A stretch of DNA of 64,000 bases, from NCBI RefSeq assembly GCF_058153355.1, contig NZ_CM177019.1; one strand, given 5' to 3'. The notes under the pieces were generated by a model, which was not told the origin of the DNA, ran no database searches, and was given only the letters and a program-made list of their open reading frames with translations. Positions 5,966 to 22,640 of this stretch are shown piece by piece (the first letter of the stretch is position 1; every line of letters starts with the position of its first letter). The position numbers and the translations under genes are program-made.

Positions 5966-6180
5966 GCCGAGTCCTTTGTGCGAGGAAAAATATCAGTATG
6001 GCCTGGTGATGGGAAAAAGGGCAGAAAATGTTGATGGTTTGTTACTTCCCAATAAATCACATATTTATCATGGTGATATAAATATTTTCCTAATTGTTCT
6101 TATCTGACAGATATCTCACTTAAGGCTTTCTTATAAATCTGTAGGGTTTGCACCATGAGTGCGGTAGCTATGAGGTTTAT

Positions 6181-8493
6181 ATGTCCTCAGAAGGATTACG
6201 TTTCACGCTGTCGGTGGCCGGTATCGTGGAGATGGCGACGGCGGTGGTGAGCTTCCGTCTGTACCAGCACCACTGCACGCCGTTCATCCTGGATGTGGAT
6301 ATCGCCAGCGGGCTGCCCGACCTGACGGCGGAGGATTTTCTGGAGAAGAGCGCGGTGCTGACGGTCTGGCAGGGTGATATCCCGCAGCGTTACGTCAGCG
6401 GTATCGTGACGGAGGTGCAGCTCGGTGAGAACAACGACTGGCAGATGCGTTATTCCCTGAGCATCAGCCCGCCGCTGTGGCGGGCAGGGTTACGGCAGAA
6501 CTTCCGTATCTTCCAGCAGCAGGACATTCAGACGATATCAGCACAGCTTCTGAGAGAGAACGGGGTGACGGCGTGGATGCCGCTGTTCTATGAGGCGCAC
6601 CCGGCGCGGGAGTTCTGCGTGCAGTACGGGGAGAGCGACCTGGCATTCCTGACCCGGCTGTGGGCGGAGGAAGGTATCTTCTTTTATGAGCGCTGCGGTC
6701 AGGAAGGGCCGGAGCAGAAGCTGGCGGTGTGTGATGACGTGGCGGGGCTGACGGGAATGGGGGCGCTGGCGTTTAACCCGAATACCACGACCGGGGGAAC
6801 GACGGAGTACATCAGTGAGTTTCGTTACCGTGCGCAGATAAGCGTGGCGTCGGTGGAGACGCAGGATTATACGTTCAAAACGCCGGGGTGGCCGGGGTAC
6901 TACAGCCATGACGGGGAGAGCCTGAACGGGCAGGGAACGCAGTACGAGATATTTGATTATCCGGGGCGTTTCAAGGATGAGCAGCATGGCCAGGATTTTG
7001 CGCGTTACCAGACGGAAGGGTGGCGGAACGGGGCGGAGACGGCGAGCGGGGTGTGTAACACGGCGCGGCTGTGGCCGGGAACGCGGTTCCGGCTGACGGG
7101 CCATCCCTCAGAGACGCTGAACCGGGAATGGCAGGTTGTGGGAAGCACACTGCGGGGAGAACAGCCGCAGGCGCTGCACGGGAGTCACGGTGAAGGGACG
7201 ACACTGAGCAATCAGTTTGAGGTGATACCGGCAGACAGGACGTGGCGTCACGCGCCGCTGCCGAAGCCGAAGGTGGACGGCCCGCAGAGTGCCATCGTGA
7301 CCGGGCCGAAGGGTGAGGAGATATTCTGCGACGAGCATGGCCGGGTACGGGTGAAGTTTCACTGGGACCGTTATCACGGGATGACGGAGGAGAGTTCGTG
7401 CTGGATACGGGTGTCGCAGGCATGGGCGGGACCGGGGTTCGGCAATCTGGCGATACCGCGTGTGGGTCAGGAAGTGATAGTGGACTTTCTGAACGGCGAC
7501 CCGGACCAGCCCATTGTGACGGGGCGGACCTACCATGAAGATAACCGTTCACCGGGGGATTTACCGGGCACGCGGACGCAGATGACCATCCGCTCGAAGA
7601 CCTATAAAGGAAGCGGCTTTAATGAACTGCGTTTCGAGGATGCGACGGACAGTGAGCAGGTGTATATCCACGCGCAGAAGAACATGGACACGGAGGTGCT
7701 TAACGACCGGACGACGGACGTGAAGCATGACCATACGGAGACCATCGGTAACGACCAGAAGATAAGGGTGGTGAAGGGGCAGACGGTTGAGGTCGGCACC
7801 AGAAAAGAAGGGGGTCACGACCAGAGTATCACGGTGGCGAACGACCGGCGCATAACGGTACGTAATGACCAGACGCTGAAGGTGACGAATGACCGGACGG
7901 TGAGCGTGAGTCACGATGACGGCCTGTATGTCAGAAACGACCGTAAAGTGACGGTGGAAGGGAAGCAGGAGCATAAGACGACGGGGAACCATATCAGCCT
8001 GGTGGAGGGAAAGCACAGTCTGGAGGTGAAGGGCGACCTGGCGGAGAAGGTGAGTGGCGCGCTGGGGATCAAGGTGGACGGGGATATCGTGCTGGAGAGC
8101 AGCAGCCGGATAAGCCTGAAAGTGGGCGGCTCGTTCGTGGTGATACACTCTGGCGGTGTGGATATTGCGGGGCCGAAGATAAACCTCAACGGGGGAGGCA
8201 GTCCGGGGACGCCAGTACAGACGTTACAACCGGTGGTACTGGAGGCGCTGGAGGATGAGAATGATGATGAGAACCCTGAAAAATATACTCTCCAGTTCCA
8301 TTTTACAGACGATGACGGGATACCGTATTCAGAGACACGCTACATTGCCTTCTTTGAGGACGGCACGCAGACGCGAGGGGAGACGGATGAAAATGGGTAT
8401 ACGGAAACATTCTCCACTGACAGCGAGCAGACAATCGAAGTCAGATTGTTGCATTTGAATATCGATATGATATGGGGAGGGATTAATGAATAG
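6181..8493 (+). CDS. vgrG: T6SS spike protein VgrG (copy 1) with C-terminal transthyretin-like extension
   Basis: N-terminus MSSEGLRFTLSV... typical of VgrG; GAGG RBS 5 nt upstream of the ATG at 6181 (the track ORF start at 6148 is an in-frame upstream ATG); gp27/gp5-like repeats; about 90 aa extension after the PKINLNGGGSPGTP end of the conserved core. Confidence 0.9.
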   Translation: MSSEGLRFTLSVAGIVEMATAVVSFRLYQHHCTPFILDVDIASGLPDLTAEDFLEKSAVLTVWQGDIPQRYVSGIVTEVQLGENNDWQMRYSLSISPPLWRAGLRQNFRIFQQQDIQTISAQLLRENGVTAWMPLFYEAHPAREFCVQYGESDLAFLTRLWAEEGIFFYERCGQEGPEQKLAVCDDVAGLTGMGALAFNPNTTTGGTTEYISEFRYRAQISVASVETQDYTFKTPGWPGYYSHDGESLNGQGTQYEIFDYPGRFKDEQHGQDFARYQTEGWRNGAETASGVCNTARLWPGTRFRLTGHPSETLNREWQVVGSTLRGEQPQALHGSHGEGTTLSNQFEVIPADRTWRHAPLPKPKVDGPQSAIVTGPKGEEIFCDEHGRVRVKFHWDRYHGMTEESSCWIRVSQAWAGPGFGNLAIPRVGQEVIVDFLNGDPDQPIVTGRTYHEDNRSPGDLPGTRTQMTIRSKTYKGSGFNELRFEDATDSEQVYIHAQKNMDTEVLNDRTTDVKHDHTETIGNDQKIRVVKGQTVEVGTRKEGGHDQSITVANDRRITVRNDQTLKVTNDRTVSVSHDDGLYVRNDRKVTVEGKQEHKTTGNHISLVEGKHSLEVKGDLAEKVSGALGIKVDGDIVLESSSRISLKVGGSFVVIHSGGVDIAGPKINLNGGGSPGTPVQTLQPVVLEALEDENDDENPEKYTLQFHFTDDDGIPYSETRYIAFFEDGTQTRGETDENGYTETFSTDSEQTIEVRLLHLNIDMIWGGINE

Positions 8494-8576
8494 AGAGTGA
8501 CCGCCTGTAATTGGCGTGTTTTTGCATAAATGGAACAGGGTTTTGTAGTGAAAACATATTGCTAAGGAGGATTTAT

Positions 8577-9422
8577 ATGGGAGATGGAAAGGGTAGTACG
8601 AGCGGAAAAAGCCAGAGCGGTGAACAGTGTGTAGTTTTAAAGGAGGGAAAAATTACTAATGATTTTAAAATAATGATGAGAGAGGCTCTGAAGGCGCTGA
8701 TGGCTGTATTGAAGAAAAGAGTAGAAGATCTTGGTGATAAATGGGGAGAGGAACAAAATCAGGAGTTTATAAATATATTTGGTATTGATGGAAATACTTA
8801 TATTAAATTAGAGTTCCCTTTCGGGGGGCGTAAGGTTATGTTTCCAGAGAATATAAAGGCAAGGGATTATATGAGAAATGGCGTTACTCGCCTGTATGAG
8901 ATATGTGGGGAATTATCTGTGGAAGGTGATTGTGTAGACGTTACTATTCATGACCATTTCCTCAAACGTGATGCCAATTGTAATCTTGTTCTTAATGACA
9001 AAGGGGGTAATGAATATGTTGACAAAGACGTAATCAGGCCCAAAACCGGTAACTTTGTGAATTGTACAGATAATGACGCTTATGCTGCCAATGTAACTTA
9101 CGATCAGATTTTGGGTGTAAAACCTGGAGGCTTTAAAAGTTTGGTAAGTATAACTATAGGACAAAGATTTATAGATAGGCCACCCACTGGGAAAAACTCT
9201 AAGGCATCGACACTCTGCCATGAACTATCTCACTTTATAAGGTACGGGGATTCATTTAAGTTTGGAGGCATGTGGACGGAAGATATGCCGGTAGATATAG
9301 AGTATAATACAGGTGACGAATATATTGTTCATGCCACTAAATTAAAAAATGATAAAAAATCAGAACTATTTCAGAATGCATATAATATCGAACGTTATTT
9401 CGAGATTCATGTACCATATTGA
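8577..9422 (+). CDS. hypothetical protein with HExxH zinc-metallopeptidase-like motif; candidate VgrG1 cargo effector
   Basis: ATG at 8577 preceded by AAGGAGG RBS; 281 aa; motif CHELSHF (HExxH) near the C-terminus followed by acidic NTGDEY; strongly AT-rich next to GC-rich vgrG; directly downstream of vgrG1. Confidence 0.6.
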   Translation: MGDGKGSTSGKSQSGEQCVVLKEGKITNDFKIMMREALKALMAVLKKRVEDLGDKWGEEQNQEFINIFGIDGNTYIKLEFPFGGRKVMFPENIKARDYMRNGVTRLYEICGELSVEGDCVDVTIHDHFLKRDANCNLVLNDKGGNEYVDKDVIRPKTGNFVNCTDNDAYAANVTYDQILGVKPGGFKSLVSITIGQRFIDRPPTGKNSKASTLCHELSHFIRYGDSFKFGGMWTEDMPVDIEYNTGDEYIVHATKLKNDKKSELFQNAYNIERYFEIHVPY

Positions 9423-9446
9423 TGCTTTTATTTGACGGGGGAGTAT

Positions 9447-10355
9447 ATGCTTGCTAGATGGATTGTTTTTATTGTTTTTTTTGCGCATCCAATATTTGCT
9501 TATGATATCTCTGGCGATTATGCTGTTCATTACAGATATGGGAAGTTATATTGGAATGGAGTAATGGACAAACTTGGTGTCTATCCTCGTGTAGAGCCGA
9601 CAAGGCTTAATTATTATGATTATTATGATGATCTTTCAGCCTATGCTGTTTTTCAATATTATACTATCAGTAAAAATGAGAGTCAGTATAATCAAGATAA
9701 AAATAAAATATATCTTCATCTTTCCGTGCATCAGAAAGAAAATATTGTAGCAGCTGCAGTGGTTTTATCGAATAAAAGCCAGGGATCTTATTTTGTTCAT
9801 CGACTAACTCTTCCTCTTGACGTTAACGGCGGGCCTTACTCTTCCTTGTGTAGTGGTGTGTTTATACCGATAATGGATAACATTCAGTTGGATTTTTTAA
9901 AAAAAACAAAATGTAGCTTTGGTGAATGGAAAAATAAATCCGTTTGGCACGAGATATTAACAGGGAAAGAGCTATCCTTTGATGTCATATTGAACGATTA
10001 TTATGCCTTTTTACCGGGCATTCATCGTTATAATATAGGAACGGTAGAATTTACAATAGTTAATCAAGAGTGGTTTACAGAACAATGTATATATGAGTAT
10101 TTTCTTTCTATTATGAACTGGCGGGCAGAAAGTGAGTGTACTAATCCTATAGATAAAATAAGATATGGTATAGAGGAGTGGCGGGTTTGGAGAATTTGTG
10201 GACCTTATCGTGGGTCAGGTCTATTTCAGGATTTTTTAGCACGCTTTGGCTATCATGGCGGTAATGATAATATATTCAAAATAAGATCAAATCAGGTTGT
10301 GGTTACTATTGATGGGGATAGGGCATCTCCTCCTTATTCGTTGAGGAATTATTAA
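9447..10355 (+). CDS. hypothetical secreted protein (N-terminal signal peptide); candidate immunity or partner of the upstream HExxH protein
   Basis: ATG at 9447 with GGGGGAG RBS; N-terminus MLARWIVFIVFFAHPIFA is a typical Sec signal peptide; Tyr/Trp-rich, AT-rich; starts 25 nt after the stop of the previous gene. Confidence 0.55.
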   Translation: MLARWIVFIVFFAHPIFAYDISGDYAVHYRYGKLYWNGVMDKLGVYPRVEPTRLNYYDYYDDLSAYAVFQYYTISKNESQYNQDKNKIYLHLSVHQKENIVAAAVVLSNKSQGSYFVHRLTLPLDVNGGPYSSLCSGVFIPIMDNIQLDFLKKTKCSFGEWKNKSVWHEILTGKELSFDVILNDYYAFLPGIHRYNIGTVEFTIVNQEWFTEQCIYEYFLSIMNWRAESECTNPIDKIRYGIEEWRVWRICGPYRGSGLFQDFLARFGYHGGNDNIFKIRSNQVVVTIDGDRASPPYSLRNY

Positions 10356-10510: not shown

Positions 10511-12712
10511 ATGTCATTAAAAGGGCTGCGCTTTACGCTGACGGTGGACGGACTGGTGCCGGAGACGTTTGCGGTGGTGGATTTCCGCCTCACGCAGGCA
10601 TACTCATCGCCGTTCGTCCTGGATGTGGACGTTGCCAGCGACTCGTTCCGCCAGACGGCGGAGAAGCTGCTGGAGAAGGGGGCCGTACTGACCATCTGGC
10701 AGGGTGGCACGGCGCTGCGTTATGTGAGCGGTGTGGTGTCGGGGTTCGGCATGAAGGAGCACAACGGCTGGCAGATGCAGTACCACCTTCAGATACGTCC
10801 GCCCCTGTGGCGCAGCGGGCTGCGCCAGAACTACCGAATCTTCCAGCAGCAGGACATTCAGGCCATCTCCGCCACGCTGTTAAACGAGGACGGAGTGACG
10901 CAGTGGACGCCGCGCTTTTATGAGAGCCACCCGGCACGGGAGTTCTGCGTCCAGTACGGTGAAAGCGACATGGCGTTTCTGACCCGGCTGTGGGCGGGGG
11001 AAGGCATCTTCTTTTATGACAGATACGCTGACGACAGCCCGGAGCAGACGCTCACGCTGTGCGATGATGTGGCGGGCCTGCCGGTGTACGGGGAGATACC
11101 GTTTAACCCGAACACCCGTGAGGTGACGACGGCGTGCATCAGCCTGTTCCGCTACCAGGCGCAGGTGCGGCCCTCGCAGGTGCGTTCAAAAGACCACACG
11201 TTTAAGGTGCCGGACTGGCCGGGTATTTACATTGAGGATGCTGAAAACCTCAACGGGCAACTGAAGCAGTACAAAATCCTGGACTGGCCGGGGCGCTACA
11301 AGGACGAGCAGCATGGTCAGGACTTTACCCGCTACCGGCTGGAAGGGCTGCGTAACAGTGCTGAAACCGCCACAGGTATCAGTAACTCCCCGGCGCTGTG
11401 GCCGGGACGGCGGTTCACCTTGACGGGGCATCCGGTACAGGGAGCGAACCCGAACCGTGAGTGGCAGGTGGTGAGCAGCACGCTGACGGGGAGCCAGCCG
11501 CAGGCGCTGCACGGGAGTCACGGTGAAGGGACGACACTGAGCAATCAGTTTGAGGTGATACCGGCAGACAGGACGTGGCGTCACGCGCCGCTGCCGAAGC
11601 CGAAGGTGGACGGCCCGCAGAGTGCCATCGTGACCGGGCCGAAGGGTGAGGAGATATTCTGCGACGAGCATGGCCGGGTACGGGTGAAGTTTCACTGGGA
11701 CCGTTATCACGGGATGACGGAGGAGAGTTCGTGCTGGATACGGGTGTCGCAGGCATGGGCGGGACCGGGGTTCGGCAATCTGGCGATACCGCGTGTGGGT
11801 CAGGAAGTGATAGTGGACTTTCTGAACGGCGACCCGGACCAGCCCATTGTGACGGGGCGGACCTACCATGAAGATAACCGTTCACCGGGGGATTTACCGG
11901 GCACGCGGACGCAGATGACCATCCGCTCGAAGACCTATAAAGGAAGCGGCTTTAATGAACTGCGTTTCGAGGATGCGACGGACAGTGAGCAGGTGTATAT
12001 CCACGCGCAGAAGAACATGGACACGGAGGTGCTTAACGACCGGACGACGGACGTGAAGCATGACCATACGGAGACCATCGGTAACGACCAGAAGATAAGG
12101 GTGGTGAAGGGGCAGACGGTTGAGGTCGGCACCAGAAAAGAAGGGGGTCACGACCAGAGTATCACGGTGGCGAACGACCGGCGCATAACGGTACGTAATG
12201 ACCAGACGCTGAAGGTGACGAATGACCGGACGGTGAGCGTGAGTCACGATGACGGCCTGTATGTCAGAAACGACCGTAAAGTGACGGTGGAAGGGAAGCA
12301 GGAGCATAAGACGACGGGGAACCATATCAGCCTGGTGGAGGGAAAGCACAGTCTGGAGGTGAAGGGCGACCTGGCGAGGAAGATTACCGGTGCGCTGGGA
12401 ATGAAGGTCCGGAATGAAATCGTACTGGAGAGTGGCGGTAAAATCACCCTAAAGGTGGGTGGTTCGTTTGTGGTCATCCATTCAGGGGGCGTGGACATCG
12501 TCGGGCCGAAAATCAATCTCAATAGCGGCGGTAGTCCGGGAACGCCGGTGCCGACGCTACGACCGGCGGTTTTGAAAGCGCTGGCAGATTATGACAATGG
12601 CGGACCTGGAACTGAAGGGGCGGAGCCACCACGGAAAAGTGTACAGGAAGCCTTTGATCCTCCCCAGCAGGATAAGGTACCGCCACAACGGCCGGGAAGA
12701 TTCTCACGATAA
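10511..12712 (+). CDS. vgrG: T6SS spike protein VgrG (copy 2) with short Pro-rich C-terminal tail
   Basis: 733-aa ORF, N-terminus MSLKGLRFTLTVDGL...; central about 0.88 kb is nucleotide-identical to vgrG1; GGAGG RBS upstream. Confidence 0.92.
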   Translation: MSLKGLRFTLTVDGLVPETFAVVDFRLTQAYSSPFVLDVDVASDSFRQTAEKLLEKGAVLTIWQGGTALRYVSGVVSGFGMKEHNGWQMQYHLQIRPPLWRSGLRQNYRIFQQQDIQAISATLLNEDGVTQWTPRFYESHPAREFCVQYGESDMAFLTRLWAGEGIFFYDRYADDSPEQTLTLCDDVAGLPVYGEIPFNPNTREVTTACISLFRYQAQVRPSQVRSKDHTFKVPDWPGIYIEDAENLNGQLKQYKILDWPGRYKDEQHGQDFTRYRLEGLRNSAETATGISNSPALWPGRRFTLTGHPVQGANPNREWQVVSSTLTGSQPQALHGSHGEGTTLSNQFEVIPADRTWRHAPLPKPKVDGPQSAIVTGPKGEEIFCDEHGRVRVKFHWDRYHGMTEESSCWIRVSQAWAGPGFGNLAIPRVGQEVIVDFLNGDPDQPIVTGRTYHEDNRSPGDLPGTRTQMTIRSKTYKGSGFNELRFEDATDSEQVYIHAQKNMDTEVLNDRTTDVKHDHTETIGNDQKIRVVKGQTVEVGTRKEGGHDQSITVANDRRITVRNDQTLKVTNDRTVSVSHDDGLYVRNDRKVTVEGKQEHKTTGNHISLVEGKHSLEVKGDLARKITGALGMKVRNEIVLESGGKITLKVGGSFVVIHSGGVDIVGPKINLNSGGSPGTPVPTLRPAVLKALADYDNGGPGTEGAEPPRKSVQEAFDPPQQDKVPPQRPGRFSR

Positions 12713-12721
12713 GGACTGAAC

Positions 12722-15211
12722 ATGAAAATCAGCCATCCCATCAGGGATAAAGAAGGCAAAGAGTTTCGCTCACTGGATGAGATAATGCGGCTTATTGACA
12801 AAGAAGCGCACGGAACCTGGCTGCTGGGTGGAAACGGGCTGTGGCACGGCGGGATACATATCAGTGACGTGTCTAATCCGTTATCAGCCCTGAAACCGGA
12901 TACCGCCGCTACCGGAGAACCGGTTCCTCTTCAGTTTATGGCCGATGGCACCATTGCGGCGTACCGGATAAATAATGATTACCTGAAAGGCCCCTACAAA
13001 GGGCAGCAACTCCGTTACAGCAGCACATTTGTTCTGGTGAAATCGCAGTGCCAGCCAGACCCGCAAAAAAAAGAAAGCTGGCTGGAATTTTACTGTCTCT
13101 ATATGCATCTGGCCCCGGTGAACGATTATCCCGGCTCCCCCTGCTATAAAGTTAAAACCGGGCATGGTGGCATATTGCTGCACCGATACATCCCGGGAAA
13201 GAACGGCCTTCCCGAGGGGCAGGAAAGCGGAGATCATGCCACGTACTGGATACCCCCGAAAATCAGCGGAAACAGGACACTTAATGCGGGAGATCGGTTT
13301 GTGTCATCCCGGACCGGACGTTTTTACGTGACCAATAACGGCCAGCCGGTCCTGACGACATTCGGACTGGTTCGCCTGCTGGAAGGCAATAAACCGGGGA
13401 ATGAGCAGTACTGGGTGACCCTGGATCCGGATCTGATGGAGTCAGATGGCGAAATACAGATGCTGATGCCTGAGTGGATGCAGAAGGCGAAGGCAAAAGG
13501 CATTTTTGACTCGGTACAGACGGTCGACGAAACGGAAGAGTGGAAAGTCAGTGCCGGAACACCGGTCGGATTTATGGGATGCGAGGATTATCCTGGCGAG
13601 GGAAGCGGTGAGATTGAGCGCGAGTGGTTCGTCCATCTGGAGGTTCTGAGTACAGACCCGAATATGCCAAAGTTCTTATCCAACCCGGCAGGCGTTAAGG
13701 GAGAAAAACGGACTGTTCTGGCACCAAAAGGGATAATTTTATACACCCGGCAGGCCGTTCCGGGACAGGAGGTATTTACCGCAACCGCAGCCACGCTGGG
13801 TGCTCAGCGCGTTCTTCCGCGGGAAGCCACGACACCAGTCACGGATGAATCGCAGCAGTGGTGGTTTAATATCACCGGAACCGGCTGGCTGCCACAAAAG
13901 GATGTTGAAGAGGCCGGACAGTATGATTTACTGAAGCTGGGTTTTCAACCGCTGGAGGAGAACAGCAGCGGTGACATGACGTACAGCCCGTACGAAGGAT
14001 GGGTGCCGGAAGCGTTTGACTCAATAAGCCGTGCCGCAGAACAGGGAGATGAGTGGCTGTATGAGCAGGTACCGCCCTTTTATCGTGAGCTGATGGCGGG
14101 TATGGATCAGGACGGTGATGGAAAAGTGACGGAGGAAGAGATCAGACAGGCGCTGATCGTGCGTGAACCACTGGTGAGAAATGTGGTGAATCATCTGATA
14201 GTTAAACACCACAGCGAATGGTACGGAGGGCGCTCGACAGGGCGGTGGGAAGGATTTTATAAAGATCTGGATACAGAGGAAGTGGCATACTGTGAGAAGT
14301 GGCAGCTGGATCTGGAGTGGATGAGCGGGGTATCTCCGTTTAATAGTGATGATGCTGTGTGGCATTTTCATCCGGTTGTGTTTTTGGACGCTATTAATTC
14401 CAAATCTGTGTGTGCTTGCAACAGAGATATAACATTAGATGAATTAAAAAAAGTTGCTCCTGCAGTAAGTGAAGGTCTTCTCAAAAGGTACCTCTACGAT
14501 ATAAATGCAGGGTTTATTCGGTTTGGTATGACCACTTGTAGAGAAAAAGCCCATTTTCTTGCTCAAATTATTCACGAGAGCGGTTATTTTAGATATACCA
14601 AAGAAATTAATGGTGAATCAGCTTCATATAGTCCGTGGTATGGCCGAGGCTTAATACAAGTTACAGGCGAAAGTAATTACACCGCCTATGGGGAATATAT
14701 CAATGAGGACGTAACATCTTCAGATTCCGCAAGAGATAAACTCATATCCTCCCCACATTGCGTATTATCTGCGTTTTGGTATTTCAATATATTCAAAAGA
14801 ATAAATGAAGATGCTAAAAATGATGATTTTAATAAAATTACAGTAGTGATTAATGGAGGGTATAATCATTATGATGAACGGTTGTCGATATTTAATAAAT
14901 TGGTTACCTCACTTGCTGCCGAGCATTTAAATCAGAAAGAAATGAACGACGATTTCTTGTTTGATGATAGTGACGTATATGATAATAAAGTATATGCTTT
15001 GGGATGGGGGATATGGCATGATCCTGATAGCTCCCGAAGAGGGACGATCAAGAGTAACGAAGAAGCATTAAAAGGTTATAGAAGGGCGAAAGAATTAATT
15101 GACCTGCATCCGTTTCCTCAGGAAGGGCGTGAGGGTGATAGAAAAGTATATGGAATAGAAAAAAGGAATATATCCACATTTGTAGAGAGACGAATAACTG
15201 AACTGGAGTAA
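12722..15211 (+). CDS. modular T6SS effector candidate: unknown N-terminal domain, EF-hand, C-terminal GH19 (chitinase/lysozyme-like) peptidoglycan hydrolase domain
   Basis: 829-aa ORF 9 nt after the vgrG2 stop; canonical EF-hand loop DQDGDGKVTEEE; C-terminal motifs AHFLAQIIHESG and YGRGLIQVTGESNY match GH19-family catalytic signatures; the C-terminal third is AT-rich compared with the N-terminal part. Confidence 0.75.
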   Translation: MKISHPIRDKEGKEFRSLDEIMRLIDKEAHGTWLLGGNGLWHGGIHISDVSNPLSALKPDTAATGEPVPLQFMADGTIAAYRINNDYLKGPYKGQQLRYSSTFVLVKSQCQPDPQKKESWLEFYCLYMHLAPVNDYPGSPCYKVKTGHGGILLHRYIPGKNGLPEGQESGDHATYWIPPKISGNRTLNAGDRFVSSRTGRFYVTNNGQPVLTTFGLVRLLEGNKPGNEQYWVTLDPDLMESDGEIQMLMPEWMQKAKAKGIFDSVQTVDETEEWKVSAGTPVGFMGCEDYPGEGSGEIEREWFVHLEVLSTDPNMPKFLSNPAGVKGEKRTVLAPKGIILYTRQAVPGQEVFTATAATLGAQRVLPREATTPVTDESQQWWFNITGTGWLPQKDVEEAGQYDLLKLGFQPLEENSSGDMTYSPYEGWVPEAFDSISRAAEQGDEWLYEQVPPFYRELMAGMDQDGDGKVTEEEIRQALIVREPLVRNVVNHLIVKHHSEWYGGRSTGRWEGFYKDLDTEEVAYCEKWQLDLEWMSGVSPFNSDDAVWHFHPVVFLDAINSKSVCACNRDITLDELKKVAPAVSEGLLKRYLYDINAGFIRFGMTTCREKAHFLAQIIHESGYFRYTKEINGESASYSPWYGRGLIQVTGESNYTAYGEYINEDVTSSDSARDKLISSPHCVLSAFWYFNIFKRINEDAKNDDFNKITVVINGGYNHYDERLSIFNKLVTSLAAEHLNQKEMNDDFLFDDSDVYDNKVYALGWGIWHDPDSSRRGTIKSNEEALKGYRRAKELIDLHPFPQEGREGDRKVYGIEKRNISTFVERRITELE

Positions 15212-15216
15212 TTGAT

Positions 15217-15627
15217 ATGAAAGTTAATTTATTGGTTTTACTGTTTTGTTTGGTGCCTTGTTGTTTATTGGCTAAACAACAAACAACGGTAGGCTGTTTT
15301 AGCGCTGGGAAAACAAATTTAAAGTTTGTTGAAATATCGTCTGGCGATATTTTTTTAGGTTATGTGATTTATGAGAAATCCTCAAAATTTATACCTCTTG
15401 CGTTTATAAATAAATTAGAAGTGACTTTCGATGACAGGCCTTCTGAATTTTCTTATGCATGGAGCGAGGTTGTAAATGGAAAAATTAATGGGTTGTATGT
15501 TGTTTCCACACAAGGTGCAAGATTTAATTTGTTTCATTATAAATCAATAAGTGGGAAAACAACTGAGTTTGAAGAAAATATTGAGGCATATAATGATGAT
15601 GGTACTGATTGCAAATGGACTGGATGA
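15217..15627 (+). CDS. putative periplasmic immunity protein for the GH19-type effector
   Basis: 136-aa ORF starting 6 nt after the effector stop; N-terminal signal peptide MKVNLLVLLFCLVPCCLLA; AT-rich like the toxin domain. Confidence 0.6.
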   Translation: MKVNLLVLLFCLVPCCLLAKQQTTVGCFSAGKTNLKFVEISSGDIFLGYVIYEKSSKFIPLAFINKLEVTFDDRPSEFSYAWSEVVNGKINGLYVVSTQGARFNLFHYKSISGKTTEFEENIEAYNDDGTDCKWTG

Positions 15628-15789: not shown

Positions 15790-17070
15790 AAAGATCACGT
15801 AACGCTGCTTTTTTGTACTATACAATTCGCATTTTATGTTTGAAAATTGAGATATTCCTCATTACCTGAAGCTGTTTTTTATTGCTTATACATGATCAAA
15901 TACTCCTTACATAATTAAGGAGAACAAAATGGTACTTAAAAAATTGATGGAACATATTTCTATTATCCCCGATTACAGACAAGCCTGGAAAGTGGAACAT
16001 AAATTATCGGATATTCTACTGTTGACTATTTGCGCCGTTATTTCGGGTGCAGAAGGCTGGGAAGATATAGAGGATTTTGGGGAAACACATCTCGATTTTT
16101 TGAAGCAATATGGTGATTTTGAAAATGGTATTCCTGTTCACGATACCATTGTCAGAGTTGTATCCTGTATCAGTCCTGCAAAATTTCACGAGTGCTTTAT
16201 TAACTGGATGCGTGACTGCCATTCTTCAGATGATAAAGGCGTCATTGCAATTGATGGAAAAACGCTCCGGCACTCTTATGACAAGAGTCGCCGCAGGGGA
16301 GCGATTCATGTCATTAGTGCGTTCTCAACAATGCACAGTCTGGTCATCGGACAGATCAAGACGGATGAGAAATCCAATGAGATTACAGCTATCCCAGAAC
16401 TTCTTAACATGCTGGATATTAAAGGAAAAATCATCACAACTGATGCGATGGGTTGCCAGAAAGATATTGCAGAGAAGATACAAAAACAGGGAGGTGATTA
16501 TTTATTCGCGGTAAAAGGAAACCAGGGGCGGCTAAATAAAGCCTTTGAGGAAAAATTTCCGCTGAAAGAATTAAATAATCCAGATCATGACAGTTAAGCG
16601 ATTAGTGAAAAGAGTCACGGCAGAGAAAAAATCCGTCTTCATATTGTTTGCGATGTCCCTGATGAACTTATTGATTTCACGTTTGAATGGAAAGGTCTGA
16701 AGAAATTATGCGTGGCAGTCTCCTTTCGGTTAATAATAGCAGAACAAAAGAAAGAGCCAGAAATGACGGTCAGATATTATATCAGTTCTGCTGATTTAAC
16801 CGCAGAGAAGTTCGCCACAGCAATCCGAAACCACTGGCACGTGGAGAATAAGCTGCACTGGCGTCTGGACGTGGTAATGAATGAAGACGACTGCAAAATA
16901 AGAAGAGGAAACGCCGCAGAATTATTTTCAGGGATACGGCACATCGCTATTAATATTTTAACGAATGATAAGGTATTCAAGGCAGGGTTAAGACGTAAGA
17001 TGCGAAAAGCAGCCATGGACAGAAACTATCTCGCGTCAGTCCTTGCGGGGAGCGGGCTTTCGTAATCTTG
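15790..17070 (+). mobile_element. H-repeat (H-rpt) element, ISAs1 family, nearly full length
   Basis: Encodes the H-repeat-associated transposase-like protein; its 5' end, including about 140 bp upstream of the ATG, recurs at 19865-20290 and in degenerate form at 21975-22635; element boundaries are approximate. Confidence 0.75.
15929..17065 (+). pseudogene. ISAs1-family (H-repeat-associated) transposase, interrupted by a single in-frame TAA
   Basis: ORFs 15929-16597 and 16712-17065 are in the same frame (669 and 114 nt offsets are multiples of 3) and separated only by TAA at 16598-16600; combined length about 378 codons, the size of intact H-rpt proteins. Confidence 0.75.
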
Positions 17071-17075
17071 CCCTG

Positions 17076-19492
17076 GAGGTGATACCGGCGGACAGGACGT
17101 GGCGTCACGCGCCCCTGCCGAAGCCGAAGGTGGACGGCCCGCAGAGTGCCATCGTGACCGGGCCGAAGGGCGAGGAGATATTCTGCGACGAGCATGGCCG
17201 GGTACGGGTGAAGTTTCACTGGGACCGTTATCACGGGATGACGGAGGAGAGTTCATGCTGGATACGGGCGTCGCAGGCATGGGCGGGACCGGGGTTCGGC
17301 AATCTGGCGATACCGCGTGTGGGTCAGGAAGTGATAGTGGACTTTCTGAACGGCGACCCGGACCAGCCCATTGTGACGGGGCGGACATACCATGAGGACA
17401 ACCGTTCACCGGGGGATTTACCGGGCACGCGGACGCAGATGACCATCCGCTCGAAGACCTATAAAGGAAGCGGCTTTAATGAACTGCGTTTCGAGGATGC
17501 GACGGACAGTGAGCAGGTGTATATCCACGCGCAGAAGAACATGGACACGGAGGTGCTTAACGACCGGACGACGGACGTGAAGCATGACCATACGGAGACC
17601 ATCGGTAACGACCAGAAGATAAGGGTGGTGAAGGGGCAGACGGTTGAGGTCGGCACCAGAAAAGAAGGGGGTCACGACCAGAGTATCACGGTGGCGAACG
17701 ACCGGCGCATAACGGTACGTAATGACCAGACGCTGAAGGTGACGAATGACCGGACGGTGAGCGTGAGTCACGATGACGGCCTGTATGTCAGAAACGACCG
17801 TAAAGTGACGGTGGAAGGGAAGCAGGAGCATAAGACGACGGGGAACCATATCAGTCTGGTGGAGGGAACGCACAGTCTGGAGGTGAAGGGCGACCTGGCG
17901 AGGAAGATTACCGGTGCGCTGGGAATGAAGGTCCGGGATGAAATCGTACTGGAGAGTGGTGGTAAAATCACCCTGAAGTGGGTGGCTCGTTTGTGGTCGT
18001 TCATTCTGGTGGTGTGGATATTGTCGGACCGAAAATAAATCTGAATTGCGGGCGCAGTCCGGGGACGCCGATAAATACACTACAACCGGCAGTTATGGAC
18101 GCTCTGGCTGACGAGCAGTATGACAGAGGGAATGCTGGCGGCGGGAATGACGGAGAGCCTAGTGATGAGGATGAATCAGAAGGTGGAGAAGAAGACAAGG
18201 ACGATTCAGATGAACTGGTAATTCCTGTATACGCAAAATCTTGTCTGAAGGAGAAAGGCTGCACTGATGCTGGTACGACCATGGAGCCATCGAAACATTT
18301 TGGTGATATGGCTCTATTTGCCCAGCCAGTGGAGGATGACTGTTGCGGCTATGGTACACACTATCATGACGATGAAGTGGAGCAACTTGCGCAGTCAGCA
18401 AAAAAAACCTCAGGAGCGAACTCACTGACGGGGGAAATGACAGTTGCGTCAGCGGGTGTTGCGGTTCCACTAGCGGCGGAACAGTCTGCGGGAGTTTTAA
18501 CTCGCGTATGGGGAACATTAGGGGCATGGGGTGGAGAAGGTTTTTTAAGTGTATCAAAAACGGTGCCAGCCCTTGGTGTCCTAGTATCAGCACTATATCC
18601 AATACCTGCCGGTGAAGGTAGTGATAAAGTTCCTGGACGGGATGAACAGTGGCTCGAAAATGAGCTACGTCGTAAAGCGCAATCTGGAGAGACGGCAGCT
18701 ACGCGGGCGCGCTTTCTCTTTCAGCGGAATACTGCTGGTGAATTGAGGACATACGGATACCACACACCCGCAGGTTCGGAACTTGAAGGTGTTCGGGTAG
18801 CATTGATGGAGTGGAATAAGGAATTTTCCCGTTATGAATTTTCACCTGTGTCTGATTCGGGACCAAAAATATTTTGGACGCCTGCAAAGCCAGAAGGTTC
18901 AGAGCAGCCCATACACACCGGAACTCCTGTCGAACCAGTTGATCTACCTGATATTTATGTTAATCCGATACCCGATGAAAAAACAGATATCACCACGCCG
19001 CCTTCTCCAATGCCGGAGGAGCGAAATTTTAATGACTGGATACTTGTCTTTCCTGACGGTGCGGAATTAACACCAATATATGTGTATCTGAAAACTGCAA
19101 GGGATGTAGCGGGAACAGTAACAGGTAAGGGGGAGGTGTTAGCAGGTACAGGAAGATGGCTGTCGCAGGCGGGGAAAAGCTTAGGAGTGCCAATTCCACA
19201 ACAGGTCGCAAATAAACTTCGGAGTAAGTCATTTAACAATTTTGATGAATTCATGGCAGCTTTCTGGACTGCTGTAGGTGAATGTCCAGAACTATTGAGC
19301 CAATTTAATAAAGCTAACCAAACGTTGATAAAGCGTGGACGCGCACCTTATACTATATCAAGACAAAGAGTTGGGGGGCGAGGTACATTTGAAATTCATC
19401 ATATTGACGAAATCCAATATGGGGGAGAAGTCTATGATATTGATAATCTTAGAGTAAACACACCTAAAAACCACATACGATTGCATAAATAA
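17076..19492 (+). pseudogene. 5'-truncated, frameshifted vgrG (copy 3) fused to colicin E9-like HNH DNase toxin domain
   Basis: vgrG homology begins abruptly at about 17076, right after the H-rpt end, so the N-terminal half is missing; a 1-nt deletion near 17977 (ctgaagtgggtgg here, ctaaaggtgggtgg in vgrG2) splits the reading frame; C-terminal domain ...GRGTFEIHHIDEIQYGGEVYDIDNLRVNTPKNHIRLHK matches the colicin E9/E7 DNase HNH motif. Confidence 0.8.
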
Positions 19493-19505
19493 AAAGGAGG
19501 TAGTA

Positions 19506-19778
19506 ATGGAGTTTAAAAATAATCTAGAAGATTATACGGAAGATGAATTTATCGAACTTCTAAATAATTTTTTTGAACCACCTGAGGAATTGCATGGCGA
19601 TAAGTTGTCGAAGTTTATTGATGATCTTGTAAGTCATTTTATTAGAATCACTCAGCACCCAGATGGTAGTGATTTGATATTCTATCCATCTGAAGATAGA
19701 GAAGATAGTCCCCAAGGGATTGTTGATGAGTTAAAACGATGGCGAGCATCGCAGGGGCTAGGATGCTTTAAAATATAA
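19506..19778 (+). CDS. colicin DNase-type immunity protein (Im9/Im7-like)
   Basis: 90-aa ORF 14 nt after the DNase stop with GGAGG RBS; MEFKNNLEDYTEDEFIELL...HPDGSDLIFYP...DSPQGIV...RWRASQG aligns with the Im9 family (DYTE.EF, HP.GSDLI.YP, DSP.GIV). Confidence 0.85.
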   Translation: MEFKNNLEDYTEDEFIELLNNFFEPPEELHGDKLSKFIDDLVSHFIRITQHPDGSDLIFYPSEDREDSPQGIVDELKRWRASQGLGCFKI

Positions 19779-19864
19779 TGAAAATAAATACTCATCATAT
19801 TTTATTAAAATGATTGGTGTTTTTGTTATTAACCTTAAACCACTTCCTGAGAAGGTGGTACAGG

Positions 19865-20295
19865 GAAAGATCACCAGAAGTACACTTTTTGTACTAAATA
19901 ATTCGCATTTTATGTTCAATAATTGAGATATTCCTCATTACCTGAGGCTGTTTTTTATTGCTTATACATGATCAAATACTCCTTACATAATTAAGGAGAA
20001 CAAAATGGAACTTAAAAAATTGATGGAACATATTTCTGTTATTCCTGATTACAGACAAGCCTGGAAAGTGGAACATAAATTGTCGGATATTCTACTTTTG
20101 ACTATTTGCTCCGTCATTTCTGGTACAGAAGGCTGGCAAGATATAGAGAATTTTGGGGAAACACATCTCGATTTTTTGAAGCGACATGGTGATTTTTGAA
20201 ATGGTATTCCTGTTCACATACCATTGCCAGAGTTGTATCCTGTATCAGCCCTGCAAAATTTCATGAGTGCTTTATTAAAAGGAAACCAGGGGCGG
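19865..20295 (+). mobile_element. H-repeat 5' fragment (includes truncated 64-codon transposase ORF 20005-20199)
   Basis: Near-identical to 15790-16210 of the full H-rpt; the ORF ends prematurely (GDF then stop); joined through a short internal H-rpt piece (GNQGRL) to effector-derived sequence. Confidence 0.75.
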
Positions 20296-21465
20296 CTTAA
20301 TATCACCGGAACCGGCTGGCTGCCACAAAAGGATGTTGAAGAGGCCGGACAGTATGATTTACTGAAGCTGGGTTTTCAACCGCTGGAGGAGAACAGCAGC
20401 GGTGACATGACGTACAGCCCGTACGAAGGATGGGTGCCGGAAGCGTTTGACTCAATAAGCCGTGCCGCAGAACAGGGAGATGAGTGGCTGTATGAGCAGG
20501 TACCGCCCTTTTATCGTGAGCTGATGGCGGGTATGGATCAGGACGGTGATGGAAAAGTGACGGAGGAAGAGATCAGACAGGCGCTGACCGTGCGTGAACC
20601 ACTGGTGAGAAATGTGGTGAATCGTCTGACAGTCAGACACCACAGCGAGTGGTACGGCGGTCGCTCGACGGGACGCTGGGAAGGGTTTTATAAAGATCTG
20701 GACACCGAGGAAGTGGCATACTGTGAAAAGTGGCAGCTGGATCTGGAGTGGATGAGCGGGGTGTCTCCGTTTAATAGTGATGATGCTGTGTGGCATTTTC
20801 ATCCGGTTGTGTTTTTGAATGCTATTAATAATAGCAATTACCCAAAAACTCCTGTGAATAATGAACTTATTCCATTGGAATTTTTACGATTTTATAACGG
20901 AGATACCATTGATGATGCAGACTATGAAAATGCTGCAAGGACACTACAATGCGAAGTGGCTGCAATTAAAGCTGTTGCAAAAACTGAAACTGGTAGTTCC
21001 GGTAGCTATTTTAAATTTGAACAAGAAGATGATTACGTCCCCTCAATTCTTTTTGAAAGACATCATTTCCATCGATATACGAATGGTGTGTATGATTCTC
21101 AACCTGATATTTCCAACAGCCGTTCTGGCGGTTATGGAACACGATCGGAGCAATATCAAAAATTACTTCGTGCATATGTTTTAGATAAGCAAGCTGCGCT
21201 TAAATCGGCATCGTGGGGTAAATTTCAGATATTGGCTTCAAATTACCAAGCTACCGGGTACTCTTCGCCCGAAGAGTTTATAATATCGATTTCAGAGTTA
21301 GAGAAAAACCATCTGGCGGCATTCATTAACTTCATAAAATCTAATCCTGTATTATTGCGTGCTATTAGAGATAAAGATTGGCTTAACTTTGCTCTATGTT
21401 ATAATGGGCAAAGTCAGCGAGGATATGATGACAGAATAAGGGCTAATTATGAGCAATATAGATAG
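20224..21465 (+). CDS. orphan, N-terminally truncated effector module: conserved EF-hand middle region plus alternative C-terminal N-acetylmuramidase (DUF3380-like) domain
   Basis: Residues from NITGTGWLPQKDVEEAG through HPVVFL are about 95% identical at nucleotide level to 13865-14395 of the 829-aa effector, then diverge into a C-terminus with ILFERHHFHRYT, SWGKFQILASNY and LCYNGQSQ motifs typical of the DUF3380 muramidase family; the first 20 codons derive from H-rpt sequence in another frame. Confidence 0.7.
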   Translation: MPELYPVSALQNFMSALLKGNQGRLNITGTGWLPQKDVEEAGQYDLLKLGFQPLEENSSGDMTYSPYEGWVPEAFDSISRAAEQGDEWLYEQVPPFYRELMAGMDQDGDGKVTEEEIRQALTVREPLVRNVVNRLTVRHHSEWYGGRSTGRWEGFYKDLDTEEVAYCEKWQLDLEWMSGVSPFNSDDAVWHFHPVVFLNAINNSNYPKTPVNNELIPLEFLRFYNGDTIDDADYENAARTLQCEVAAIKAVAKTETGSSGSYFKFEQEDDYVPSILFERHHFHRYTNGVYDSQPDISNSRSGGYGTRSEQYQKLLRAYVLDKQAALKSASWGKFQILASNYQATGYSSPEEFIISISELEKNHLAAFINFIKSNPVLLRAIRDKDWLNFALCYNGQSQRGYDDRIRANYEQYR

Positions 21466-21898
21466 AGCATTAATTTTTATTTTTTTATCTGGAATTCCCT
21501 GGACTCTACACGCAGGAAATAATTATTTTTTATGTAATACATCCAAAGGAACTTTGTCATTAACAAGTTTTGGTGAAACGTTGATTTATGAAATGAATAG
21601 TCAGCATGGGAATAAATTTCAATTCATTTCAGATGGACCAATGTATTCAGGATTTTTTTATAATCATTACTCCAGATTTCAAACGGATTACTTTAGCGTT
21701 AGTTTTATTCAAAGTGGATATAAGTACTCCGTGTTTAGCAATTACGACAACGGTAGTAACATGCGAGGGGTTAGTGTCATTGATATGAAAACAAAAAAAG
21801 AATACGTTTATAATTGCAAAGATTATAAAGTGGACAGGCTTTATAATCTGAAAAAAAAGCTTAAATGTGATATTAATAATGTACTAAGTTGTCAGTAA
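21449..21898 (+). CDS. putative periplasmic immunity protein for the orphan muramidase domain
   Basis: 149-aa ORF overlapping the toxin stop by 17 nt; N-terminal signal peptide (MSNIDRALIFIFLSGIPWTLHA); AT-rich. Confidence 0.55.
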   Translation: MSNIDRALIFIFLSGIPWTLHAGNNYFLCNTSKGTLSLTSFGETLIYEMNSQHGNKFQFISDGPMYSGFFYNHYSRFQTDYFSVSFIQSGYKYSVFSNYDNGSNMRGVSVIDMKTKKEYVYNCKDYKVDRLYNLKKKLKCDINNVLSCQ

Positions 21899-21904
21899 AT
21901 TGTA

Positions 21905-22640
21905 TCTTACAACGTTCGGGCGGTACGATTTACTGAAGCTGGCTTTTCATAGGCTGGAGGAAAACAGCAAGGGTAATAAAGGTAAAGACCATATAACGCC
22001 GATTTTTTGCACTAAACAATTAGCACTAAATGTCCAATAATCAAGATATCCCTTATTATTTAATAAGTGTTTTCATAGCTTATATATATTCAGACACTCC
22101 TTACATAAACAAGGAGAAAAAATGGAACTTAAAAAATTAATGGAGCATATTTCTACTGTCCCGATTACAGACAAGTCTGGAAAGTAGAGTATAAATTATC
22201 AGATATCCTAGTGCTGATTATTTTCGCCATCCTTTCCGGAGCTGAAGGATGGGAAGATATAGAGGATTCTGGTGAGACTCATCTCGATTTGTTGAAGCAA
22301 TATGGTGATTTTTAATATGGTATTCCTATTCACGATATCATTGCCAGAGTTGTGTCCTGTATCAGTCCTGGAAAATTTCACGAGTTCTTTATTAGCTGGA
22401 TGTGTGACTGTCATTCTTCAGATAATAAAACCATCATCGCAATAGATGGAAAAGCACTCCAGCACTTTTTTGATTAGCATCGTCGCAGAGGAACAATTCA
22501 TAATCATTGCGATCTCGACGATGTATAGTCTGATCCTGCGGCAGAACAAGACGGATAAAAAATCTAATGAGAGCACACTCATCAAGAACTTCTCAACCTA
22601 ATGAATATTAAAGAAAAATCATCGCAGCCAATGAAGTAAT
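21905..22640 (+). mobile_element. degenerate third module remnant: effector middle-region fragment plus decayed H-repeat 5' portion
   Basis: 21920-21975 resembles the effector YDLLKLGFQPLEENS coding sequence; 22124-22635 is a diverged H-rpt 5' part with several in-frame stops. Confidence 0.6.

Follow-up and report, generated by a model that had tools for sequence, protein, structure and literature searches.

TseP of Aeromonas dhakensis SSU is a chimeric T6SS amidase-lysozyme effector, whose C-domain is represented by PDB 8XCL (Wang et al., eLife 2025, PMC11893102). Its amidase and VgrG-loading functions reside in the N-domain, TseP-N, which binds both TsiP and VgrG2 (PMC11893102). An EF-hand in TseP has already been published; neither toxicity nor T6SS assembly was critically affected by mutations in it, Zn2+ but not Ca2+ brought back amidase activity after EDTA stripping, and the authors raised the possibility of a role for the motif in Ca2+-stringent conditions (PMC11893102). 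SARI_02625, encoded in SPI-21 of Salmonella enterica subsp. arizonae, is another T6SS effector, in which PROSITE places an EF-hand at aa 555-588 (Front Microbiol 2026, PMC12992299).

Single EF-hands are also described in other cell-wall enzymes. Slt35/MltB of E. coli and family-3 lytic transglycosylases have one, the site in Slt35 being regarded as structural, and the binding of SltB1 to PBP2 depends on Ca2+ and may involve the EF-hand of SltB1 (PMC12547810). The T6SS muramidase Tse3 of P. aeruginosa has an EF-hand-type site, Ca3, a 12-residue loop that lies away from the catalytic Glu and that is also connected by water to immunity-protein Glu103 (PMC3792639).

The effector gene and its relatives

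The window examined is a stretch of 64,000 nucleotides (contig NZ_CM177019.1 of RefSeq assembly GCF_058153355.1). It encodes an 829-aa protein that is, judged from its sequence, a TseP-family T6SS peptidoglycan-hydrolase effector with predicted dual activity, comprising an M23-fold N-domain, a conserved EF-hand module and a GH19-like lysozyme C-domain. The gene and its immediate neighbors are as follows.

10511..12712, + strand: VgrG (TssI) spike gene directly upstream of the effector (Pfam Phage_GPD 2e-74, Gp5_trimer_C, Phage_base_V)
12722..15211, + strand: TseP-like T6SS effector, 829 aa (translation, Pfam, PDB matches, homologues, Aeromonas TseP-type alignments)
12722..13855, + strand: N-terminal part of the effector, aa 1-378, M23/LytM-like core with beta-rich SH3-like inserts
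13856..14398, + strand: conserved module of about 180 aa (aa 379-559) that holds the EF-hand, with 96.1% nucleotide identity to 20287-20829
14399..15211, + strand: C-terminal GH19-like lysozyme (chitinase-fold) toxin domain (PDB matches; GC 0.37)
15217..15627, + strand: candidate immunity protein, 136 aa, N-terminal signal peptide, starting MKVNLLVLLFCLVPCCLLA (GC 0.32)

The counterpart of the 10511-12712 gene in E. coli N96 is annotated TssI/VgrG in RefSeq. Invariant residues of the M23/LytM-like core are H42, H46, H305 and E307, and AlphaFold2 (AF2) models the 575-aa N-domain as compact (pTM 0.89). The C-domain matched three PDB entries in phmmer searches, PWe2 endolysin 9ms7 (4.8e-15), endolysin 4ok7 (1.5e-11) and TseP-C 8xcl_A (1.6e-9), with which its HES catalytic-Glu motif aligns. 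The product of 15217-15627, to which Pfam and NCBIfam assign no family, is a presumptive immunity protein from the position of its gene. The peptidoglycan-hydrolase C-domain, together with immunity candidates that have signal peptides, points to the periplasm as the probable site of action.

Comparison with TseP was made through proxies for the full-length protein, A. salmonicida P0354 and an A. simiae homologue; when the 109-aa 8XCL fragment was used as protein-search query for full-length TseP, the best match did not exceed 56% identity. The P0354 C-domain shares 73% identity with the fragment of 8XCL. The effector aligns end to end with these Aeromonas TseP-type effectors (BLASTP 2e-60 and 7e-27 against the A. 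simiae homologue, 1e-38 and 7e-27 against P0354), with every column of the EF loops in register; the loop reads DTDSNGELSSEE in P0354 and DTNKDGKLSSAE in A. simiae. Shared with the TseP family are an N-domain homologous to TseP-N with a putative M23/LytM-like Zn site, an EF-hand helix-loop-helix within that domain, a C-terminal lysozyme-type glycoside hydrolase domain, and a vgrG directly upstream with a candidate immunity gene next, an order found also at the A. simiae locus (L071). However, identity to the Aeromonas clade is just 24-38%, the C-domain belongs to another GH19-like subtype, nearer the phage endolysins 9ms7 and 4ok7 than 8XCL, and the window adds an orphan module-muramidase cassette. 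The residues published for TseP (H19, H23, H109, H339, H359, E539, E663) gave no coherent match with the homologues.

SARI_02625 likewise has peptidoglycan-hydrolase domains after its EF-hand, and an immunity protein with a signal peptide, but is longer (1032 aa), with M23 and GH24-type endolysin C-domains, and the counterpart of the module in proteins of its type is only about 30% identical to ours. The module search recovered a 1018-aa protein of related architecture (P0193), and a module copy is present in a genome of the S. arizonae species (L055). Relatives are named 'EF-hand domain-containing protein' in RefSeq. The effector is an ordinary additional member of the known TseP-type effectors, with an inherited, already reported EF-hand. 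For calcium biology it has little import, the motif having been published for the TseP family, annotated by RefSeq and negative in the mutant test, the one experiment made on the homologous motif.

The EF-hand loop and its conservation

The motif and its second copy in the window are placed as follows.

14075..14155, + strand: EF-hand helix-loop-helix, aa 452-478 (AF2 helices; Pfam EF-hand_1 at 455-478)
14105..14140, + strand: 12-residue EF-hand loop DQDGDGKVTEEE, aa 461-472 (exact PS00018 match; ligands conserved in homologues)
20536..20571, + strand: second copy of the EF-hand loop, 36 nt identical (PS00018 scan)

The loop DQDGDGKVTEEE is encoded in frame at 14105-14140 on the + strand, as residues 461-472 of the 12722-15211 ORF. 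The original prediction, of a canonical 12-residue EF-hand loop in the conserved middle region of a T6SS effector, was right about the motif and its setting, where ligand positions are kept across many homologues; its coordinates (14086-14121) lay 19 nt too far left, on a span encoding RELMAGMDQDGD. The peptide and the Ile that follows match PROSITE PS00018 exactly (D-x-[DNS]-{ILVFYW}-[DENSTG]-[DNQGHRK]-{GP}-[LIVMC]-[DENQSTAGC]-x(2)-[DE]-[LIVMFYW]), DQDGDGKVTEEEI satisfying all 13 positions. The only other match in the six-frame translation of the window is at 20536-20571, where the same loop had been claimed for an orphan copy at 'about 20535' and where we found the identical 36 nt. A chance motif is ruled out by family conservation and by 200 mononucleotide shuffles of the window, which gave a mean of 0.08 PS00018 matches and a maximum of 1.

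Pfam EF-hand_1 (PF00036) matches effector residues 455-478 with E = 2.8e-5, its 23.8 bits narrowly missing the gathering cutoff of 25.4; for the orphan copy the score is 22.3 bits, and EF-hand_6 reaches 19 against a cutoff of 25. In the AF2 model predicted helices at 452-460 and 471-478 flank the loop at 461-470, in a region that is exposed and flexible, with pLDDT only 57-68 across the helix-loop-helix (aa 452-478). The motif is single, with no partner EF-hand and no four-helix paired EF-hand domain, and the isolated module matched no PDB fold and no solved EF-hand fold.

The strict loop is kept in 101 of the 120 closest homologues, which are enterobacterial relatives, and in 115 of 117 Aeromonas homologues. 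Among the former, loop positions 1, 3, 5, 6 (Gly), 8 (hydrophobic) and 12 are fixed while 2, 4 and 10 vary freely, and the ligand codons vary synonymously across species (GAT/GAC, GAA/GAG, GGN). Synonymous turnover at fixed ligands, combined with free non-ligand positions, is on this comparative evidence the apparent signature of selection for metal ligation and not just for a turn. The loop is also frequently lost: 39 of 95 cluster representatives (about 40%) have degenerate or indel-bearing loops with the flanking invariant motifs intact, and related enterobacterial loops of the D-x-N-x-D-G-x-Y type fail strict PS00018 at position 8. MGQDG--KISGEE and ENSQFHVVNE are examples of naturally degenerate loops. 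Such frequent loss is equally compatible with a motif of low function.

That pattern of repeated degeneration and indels in an otherwise intact module, the negative TseP mutant (PMC11893102), the sub-threshold Pfam scores, the unpaired hand and the want of an EF-hand fold match are all accommodated if the helix-loop-helix is only a structural element and its EF-like sequence persists by descent, with no useful calcium binding. We consider this vestigial status unlikely, since several deep clades retain the ligand positions through synonymous turnover while non-ligand positions are free, and since the strict pattern is so prevalent in both the Aeromonas and enterobacterial sets.

Possible roles of calcium

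The module carries invariant KH(x)SEW and WH(x)HP motifs and is the final conserved segment before the variable toxin domain; its His residues include H496, H548 and H550, and the EF loop lies about 25 residues upstream of KHxSEW. An earlier suggestion that the loop may be part of a linker domain fails, because the region belongs to the compact N-domain (pTM 0.89) and is flanked by invariant His/Trp motifs; a flexible linker is excluded on the same grounds.

The reading we favor, with moderate confidence, is that the loop forms a single, true calcium site of EF-hand type, inherited with the module, whose role is accessory and structural, and that it is found in the orphan by way of a homology arm. 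The effector would run from an M23/LytM-fold, Zn-dependent N-domain through the module to an exchangeable domain of lysozyme or muramidase type. In the target cell, whose periplasm is rich in calcium, Ca2+ would be ligated by D461, D463, D465, E472 (bidentate) and the K467 backbone carbonyl, and may rigidify the surface-exposed helix-loop-helix upstream of KHxSEW, conferring extra stability with no catalytic or secretion role. There would be a parallel in the single EF-hand of Slt35 and the Ca3 site of Tse3, each, like the site predicted here, one unpaired helix-loop-helix Ca2+ site in a periplasmic peptidoglycan-degrading enzyme. Those two enzymes have the SLT-domain fold, whereas the effector has an unrelated M23-like domain and a module that matched no PDB fold; loops of 15-17 residues occur in Slt35 and SltB, compared to the canonical 12 in the effector; and Ca2+ has been seen crystallographically in Slt35 and Tse3, while in the effector it is predicted.

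The proposal that calcium is coupled to toxin activity found no support: the EF-hand mutant of TseP was negative, Zn2+ and not Ca2+ restores its amidase (PMC11893102), and the loop is degenerate in about 40% of clusters. These observations also weigh against a calcium-gated compartment switch, in which sub-micromolar Ca2+ in the producer cytoplasm would keep the effector inactive or incompletely folded, aiding VgrG loading and protecting the producer, until it folds or is activated in the Ca2+-rich target periplasm. Such a switch would suit an effector that acts in the periplasm, with its loop close before KHxSEW in an N-domain whose TseP counterpart has the amidase and VgrG-loading functions, and it would fit the Ca2+-stringent conditions suggested by the TseP authors (PMC11893102); another T6SS cell-wall effector, TseH, is cited there as depending on environmental Mg2+/Ca2+. 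Yet Zn2+ alone sufficed for the EDTA-stripped TseP amidase, the TseP EF-hand mutant assembled its T6SS and killed normally (PMC11893102), family clusters often lack a competent loop, and a lone EF-hand in a compact 575-aa domain is improbable as a global folding switch. We regard the switch as decidedly unlikely. A version in which the EF-hand is a compartment sensor is, in our judgment, very doubtful: empty in the producer cytoplasm, it would leave the module beside KHxSEW/WHxHP loose for VgrG loading and self-protection, and after delivery to the calcium-rich periplasm would lock the N-domain in an active or stable state. Loop-less lineages would then have replaced this control by other means, and the negative TseP result would reflect calcium-replete assay conditions.

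The exposed, flexible position of the loop in the AF2 model would also suit a Ca2+-dependent protein-protein interface, the loaded loop meeting a partner, for instance the C-terminal extension of VgrG, the immunity protein or a cell-wall enzyme of the target. Precedents are the water-mediated contact of Tse3 Ca3 with immunity Glu103 (PMC3792639), the Ca2+-dependent binding of SltB1 to PBP2, possibly through its EF-hand (PMC12547810), and the binding of both TsiP and VgrG2 to TseP-N (PMC11893102). T6SS assembly and secretion were still supported by the TseP EF-hand mutant (PMC11893102), however, and immunity proteins change with the C-domain while the loop is constant, so that we hold an interface role to be highly improbable. 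The natural EF-hand-plus and EF-hand-minus variants of the family would allow a clean comparative test of a single bacterial EF-hand in a secreted cell-wall enzyme.

The orphan module and toxin cassettes

Downstream of the effector the module recurs in a second cassette.

20224..21465, + strand: orphan ORF, 413 aa, in which a copy of the module is joined to a PF11860 N-acetylmuramidase domain (translation, Pfam)
20287..20829, + strand: orphan module copy (blastn 96.1% over 543 nt, gapless)
21449..21898, + strand: candidate immunity protein of the orphan muramidase, 149 aa, signal peptide, starting MSNIDRALIFIFLSGIPWTLHA (GC 0.30)
21917..21969, + strand: 53-nt remnant of the module 5′ part, 85% identical to 13915-13967 (blastn)

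The orphan is without the M23-like N-terminal part, and its Pfam Muramidase match (3.7e-44) covers aa 244-412. Its module is 95% identical in amino acid sequence to effector aa 382-562, the two copies differing by 12 synonymous and 8 non-synonymous codon changes. Precisely where the 96.1% nucleotide identity stops, at the module 3′ end, GC drops from 0.51 to 0.37. Gene position again suggests an immunity role for the 21449-21898 product, and the 53-nt remnant is probably the stub of another orphan. The locus has the features of an orphan cassette: a 5′-truncated copy, a shared toxin-adjacent segment, and a different toxin with its own candidate immunity gene.

The arrangement resembles Rhs/CDI (CdiA-CT) orphans, where the 5′-truncated copy likewise lies downstream with the last conserved segment, an alternative toxin and its own immunity gene, where there is a similarly sharp GC break at the junction, and where the arrangement recurs in many genomes. 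Within the module family, 16 of 102 module copies (in 81 loci) lack the N-terminus, mostly with a full-length gene 1.6-6 kb upstream. The conserved arm here is an enzyme module of about 540 nt, in contrast to the Rhs core or the VENN/PxxxxDPxGL junction; unlike those of Rhs/CDI, the toxins of the module family are all peptidoglycan hydrolases; and orphan recombination is putative here.

The module could serve as a homology arm through which alternative toxin-immunity cassettes replace the resident C-terminus. Among homologues the same N-domain bears many different C-terminal hydrolase domains, and this diversity, with the GC break, would point to recombination of orphans into the expressed gene. 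We infer that the orphan retains the loop solely because the 96%-identical module acts as a homology arm in the exchange of toxin-immunity cassettes, its retention probably marking a recent recombination tract and not independent selection. The orphan loop was dismissed as independent evidence of selection, given its 96% nucleotide identity to the resident module. The module, with its EF-hand and invariant His/Trp motifs, marks the exact junction of putative toxin-immunity cassette exchange.

A rare E. coli island is found here to carry a TseP-family effector; it occurs in 3 of 5426 complete genomes. The window also encodes a truncated VgrG-colicin/pyocin DNase, a type of protein that SPI-21 encodes as well.

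The effector gene and its EF-hand loop

The TseP-like type VI secretion (T6SS) effector is in an island at the yibF-yibH/mtlA site of the E. coli chromosome, and only 3 of the 5426 complete genomes of this species carry it (98.8% identity). RefSeq names the full gene "chitinase" and its partial copy, here termed the orphan, "EF-hand domain-containing protein." Its parts and close neighbors are:

10511-12712, VgrG gene directly 5′ of the effector (Pfam Phage_GPD, 2e-74)
12722-15211, + strand, effector, 829 aa (translation)
12845-12859, 13634-13642, 14207-14221 and 14363-14374, non-canonical M23-like and distal module motifs
13856-14398, module, effector residues 379-559
14105-14140, + strand, EF-hand loop DQDGDGKVTEEE, effector aa 461-472 (translation)
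directly 3′ of the effector, ORF of 136 aa with signal peptide, immunity candidate
20536-20571, second EF-hand loop, all 36 nt identical, in the orphan ORF 20224-21465

The EF-hand motif is genuine, and chance is ruled out. The loop together with the next Ile satisfies all positions of PROSITE PS00018, and six-frame translation of the window yields the two loop copies as the only matches, versus a mean of 0.08 in 200 shuffles of the window. The original prediction was thus right about the consensus and about its retention in the orphan, while its placement of the loop at 14086-14121 was 19 nt too far left. Pfam EF-hand_1 matches residues 455-478 (E = 2.8e-5; 23.8 bits, slightly below the gathering score of 25.4), and AlphaFold2 (81 homologues) predicts flanking helices at 452-460 and 471-478. 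The module has one EF loop only and the Pfam pair model reaches 15 bits; it is therefore a single embedded motif, and a calmodulin-like EF-hand domain was rejected.

The last 270 aa of the effector have hits to GH19-type endolysins (9ms7, 4.8e-15; 4ok7, 1.5e-11) and to PDB 8XCL (1.6e-9), the C-domain of Aeromonas dhakensis TseP, deposited as "EF-hand domain-containing protein." H42, H46, H305 and E307, in motifs WHGGIH and VHLEV, are invariant across the family, as are W500 and P551; H496, S498, H548 and H550 are almost so. Comparison with lysostaphin and LytM motifs suggests that the WHGGIH and VHLEV residues are the counterparts of HxxxD and of the second HxH histidine. This M23-like signature is non-canonical family-wide: WHGGIH has HxxxH for HxxxD, and FVHLE has another residue at the first His position of HxH. 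Judging from sequence, the distal module His/Glu of KH(x)SEW and WH(x)HP may complete the active site, and such completion might be the reason for amidase rather than endopeptidase chemistry.

Conservation of the module and proposed cassette exchange

Exhaustive HMMER search over 1.84 billion representatives yielded 226 module relatives at E ≤ 1e-3. KH(x)SEW, WH(x)HP and several Trp are invariant among 95 representatives spanning the whole module, so that the loop region is a conserved module and not the linker domain offered as an alternative. The strict PS00018 loop is found in 101 of the 120 closest homologues (Escherichia, Salmonella, Citrobacter, Enterobacter, Klebsiella, Cronobacter and others) and in 115 of 117 from Aeromonas. 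Among those 120, D1, D/N3, D5, G6, V/I/L8 and E12 are fixed while positions 2, 4, and 10 are highly variable; in species-representative genomes the ligand codons change synonymously (GAT/GAC, GAA/GAG, GGN), leaving the residues unchanged. The loop is not universal: it is strict in 42/95 cluster representatives and present in 56/95 by a relaxed pattern that takes in a D-x-N-x-D-G-x-Y clade, and 39/95 show lost ligands or indels (for example MGQDG--KISGEE and ENSQFHVVNE). These patterns suggest an ancestral metal-binding loop under selection, repeatedly dispensable. A vestigial motif, for which the losses would speak and the unchanged ligand residues would not, is unlikely.

The orphan fuses a module copy to a PF11860 muramidase domain, without the M23-like N-terminal part. 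Effector/orphan homology begins at 13856/20287 and stops at 14398/20829; the two modules are 96.1% identical in nt and 95% in aa, with 12 synonymous and 8 non-synonymous codon differences, none within the loop. GC content declines along the locus, with VgrG at 0.60, the N-domain at 0.54, the module at 0.51-0.53, the C-domains at 0.37 and the immunity candidates at 0.30-0.32; the step to 0.37 falls exactly at the module 3′ end in both copies (junctions at 14399 and 20830), and these steps resemble those reported for TseP (PMC11893102). Depending on strain, the same N-domain bears a GH19, PF11860, GH108, GH73, pesticin-like, CHAP, GH104 or M23+GH24 C-domain. We found 102 module copies in 81 loci (71 with the N-terminal part, 16 without, 15 cut by contig ends); across these loci, copies without the N-terminus are mostly 1.6-6 kb 3′ of a full-length gene that has the same orientation. 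The module probably acts as the homology arm of a polymorphic-toxin system, and the EF-hand of the orphan would be a passenger.

Right after the orphan's immunity candidate, 53 nt (21917-21969) are 85% identical to the module 5′ part (13915-13967), and look like what is left of a third cassette, truncated still further. Module loci labelled Chryseobacterium sp. 18061 (L021), Martelella alba (L024/L034/L070) and a Bacteroidales MAG (L068) probably reflect contaminated or wrongly labelled assemblies and not the real range of the module; all other module hits in genome contigs are from Enterobacterales or Aeromonas.

Relation to TseP and proposed role

The effector was compared with TseP through two proxies, A. 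salmonicida P0354 and an A. simiae effector. The P0354 C-domain is 73% identical to an 8XCL fragment, and P0354 aligns with the effector over aa 1-149 (38%, 7e-27) and 276-737 (1e-38), the EF loops in register. For the A. simiae effector, the alignment E-values are 2e-60 and 7e-27; PAAR and VgrG genes precede it, and a 5′-truncated second copy with a different C-domain follows. That copy (L071, 10141-12495), placed after the first effector-immunity pair, is missing just the first 68 codons or so and is near-identical through the module end; Aeromonas orphans therefore keep far more N-domain than the E. coli orphan.

SARI_02625 of Salmonella arizonae SPI-21 has a PROSITE EF-hand upstream of M23 and endolysin domains (PMC12992299, 2026); the species genome also has a module copy (L055), which may be SARI_02625 itself. 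Single EF-hands are known in periplasmic cell-wall enzymes: Slt35 and family-3 lytic transglycosylases (PMC12547810), and the T6SS muramidase Tse3, at its Ca3 site (PMC3792639). Given these precedents and the TseP paper, the effector is a further member of a known family with a known motif.

TseP N-domain amidase is abolished by EDTA and restored by Zn2+, not Ca2+ (PMC11893102, eLife 2025), leaving the suggested calcium control of toxin activity unsupported; a calcium-gated switch of folding or activation is accordingly quite improbable. TseP-N binds VgrG2, and is the structural part required for T6SS assembly (PMC11893102). A calcium-dependent interface with a partner is the least probable reading. 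We lean toward an accessory structural Ca2+ site. Ca2+ is far higher in the periplasm than in the cytoplasm; bound at the loop there, it would stabilize an exposed N-domain helix-loop-helix, and the predicted site would be dispensable for catalysis and secretion.

Other genes in the window

6148-8493, first VgrG
15929-16597 and 16712-17065, ISAs1-type transposase, split in two ORFs
17043-18038, VgrG, 5′-truncated; a frame change leads into the DNase domain
17978-19492, S-type pyocin/colicin DNase domain, joined to the truncated VgrG by that frame change
19506-19778, colicin-type immunity gene
30915-35630, trimeric autotransporter adhesin, 1571 aa (ESPR signal, YadA head and stalk repeats, YadA anchor)

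The adhesin has no relation to the EF-hand finding. In E. coli N96 the first VgrG is followed by a single "M35 family metalloendopeptidase" gene (594 aa); its counterpart here (8571-10355) has an internal stop at codon 284, leaving two ORFs (8511-9422 and 9432-10355), neither with a Pfam family, and is probably a pseudogene. The transposase, VgrG-DNase and colicin-type immunity genes (15929-19778) lie between the effector-immunity pair and the orphan. Nothing collinear with 16204-19860 is present in N96, where matches to this segment come from its VgrG part and are to the N96 VgrG genes; the VgrG-DNase is similar in architecture to SARI_02603 of S. arizonae SPI-21.
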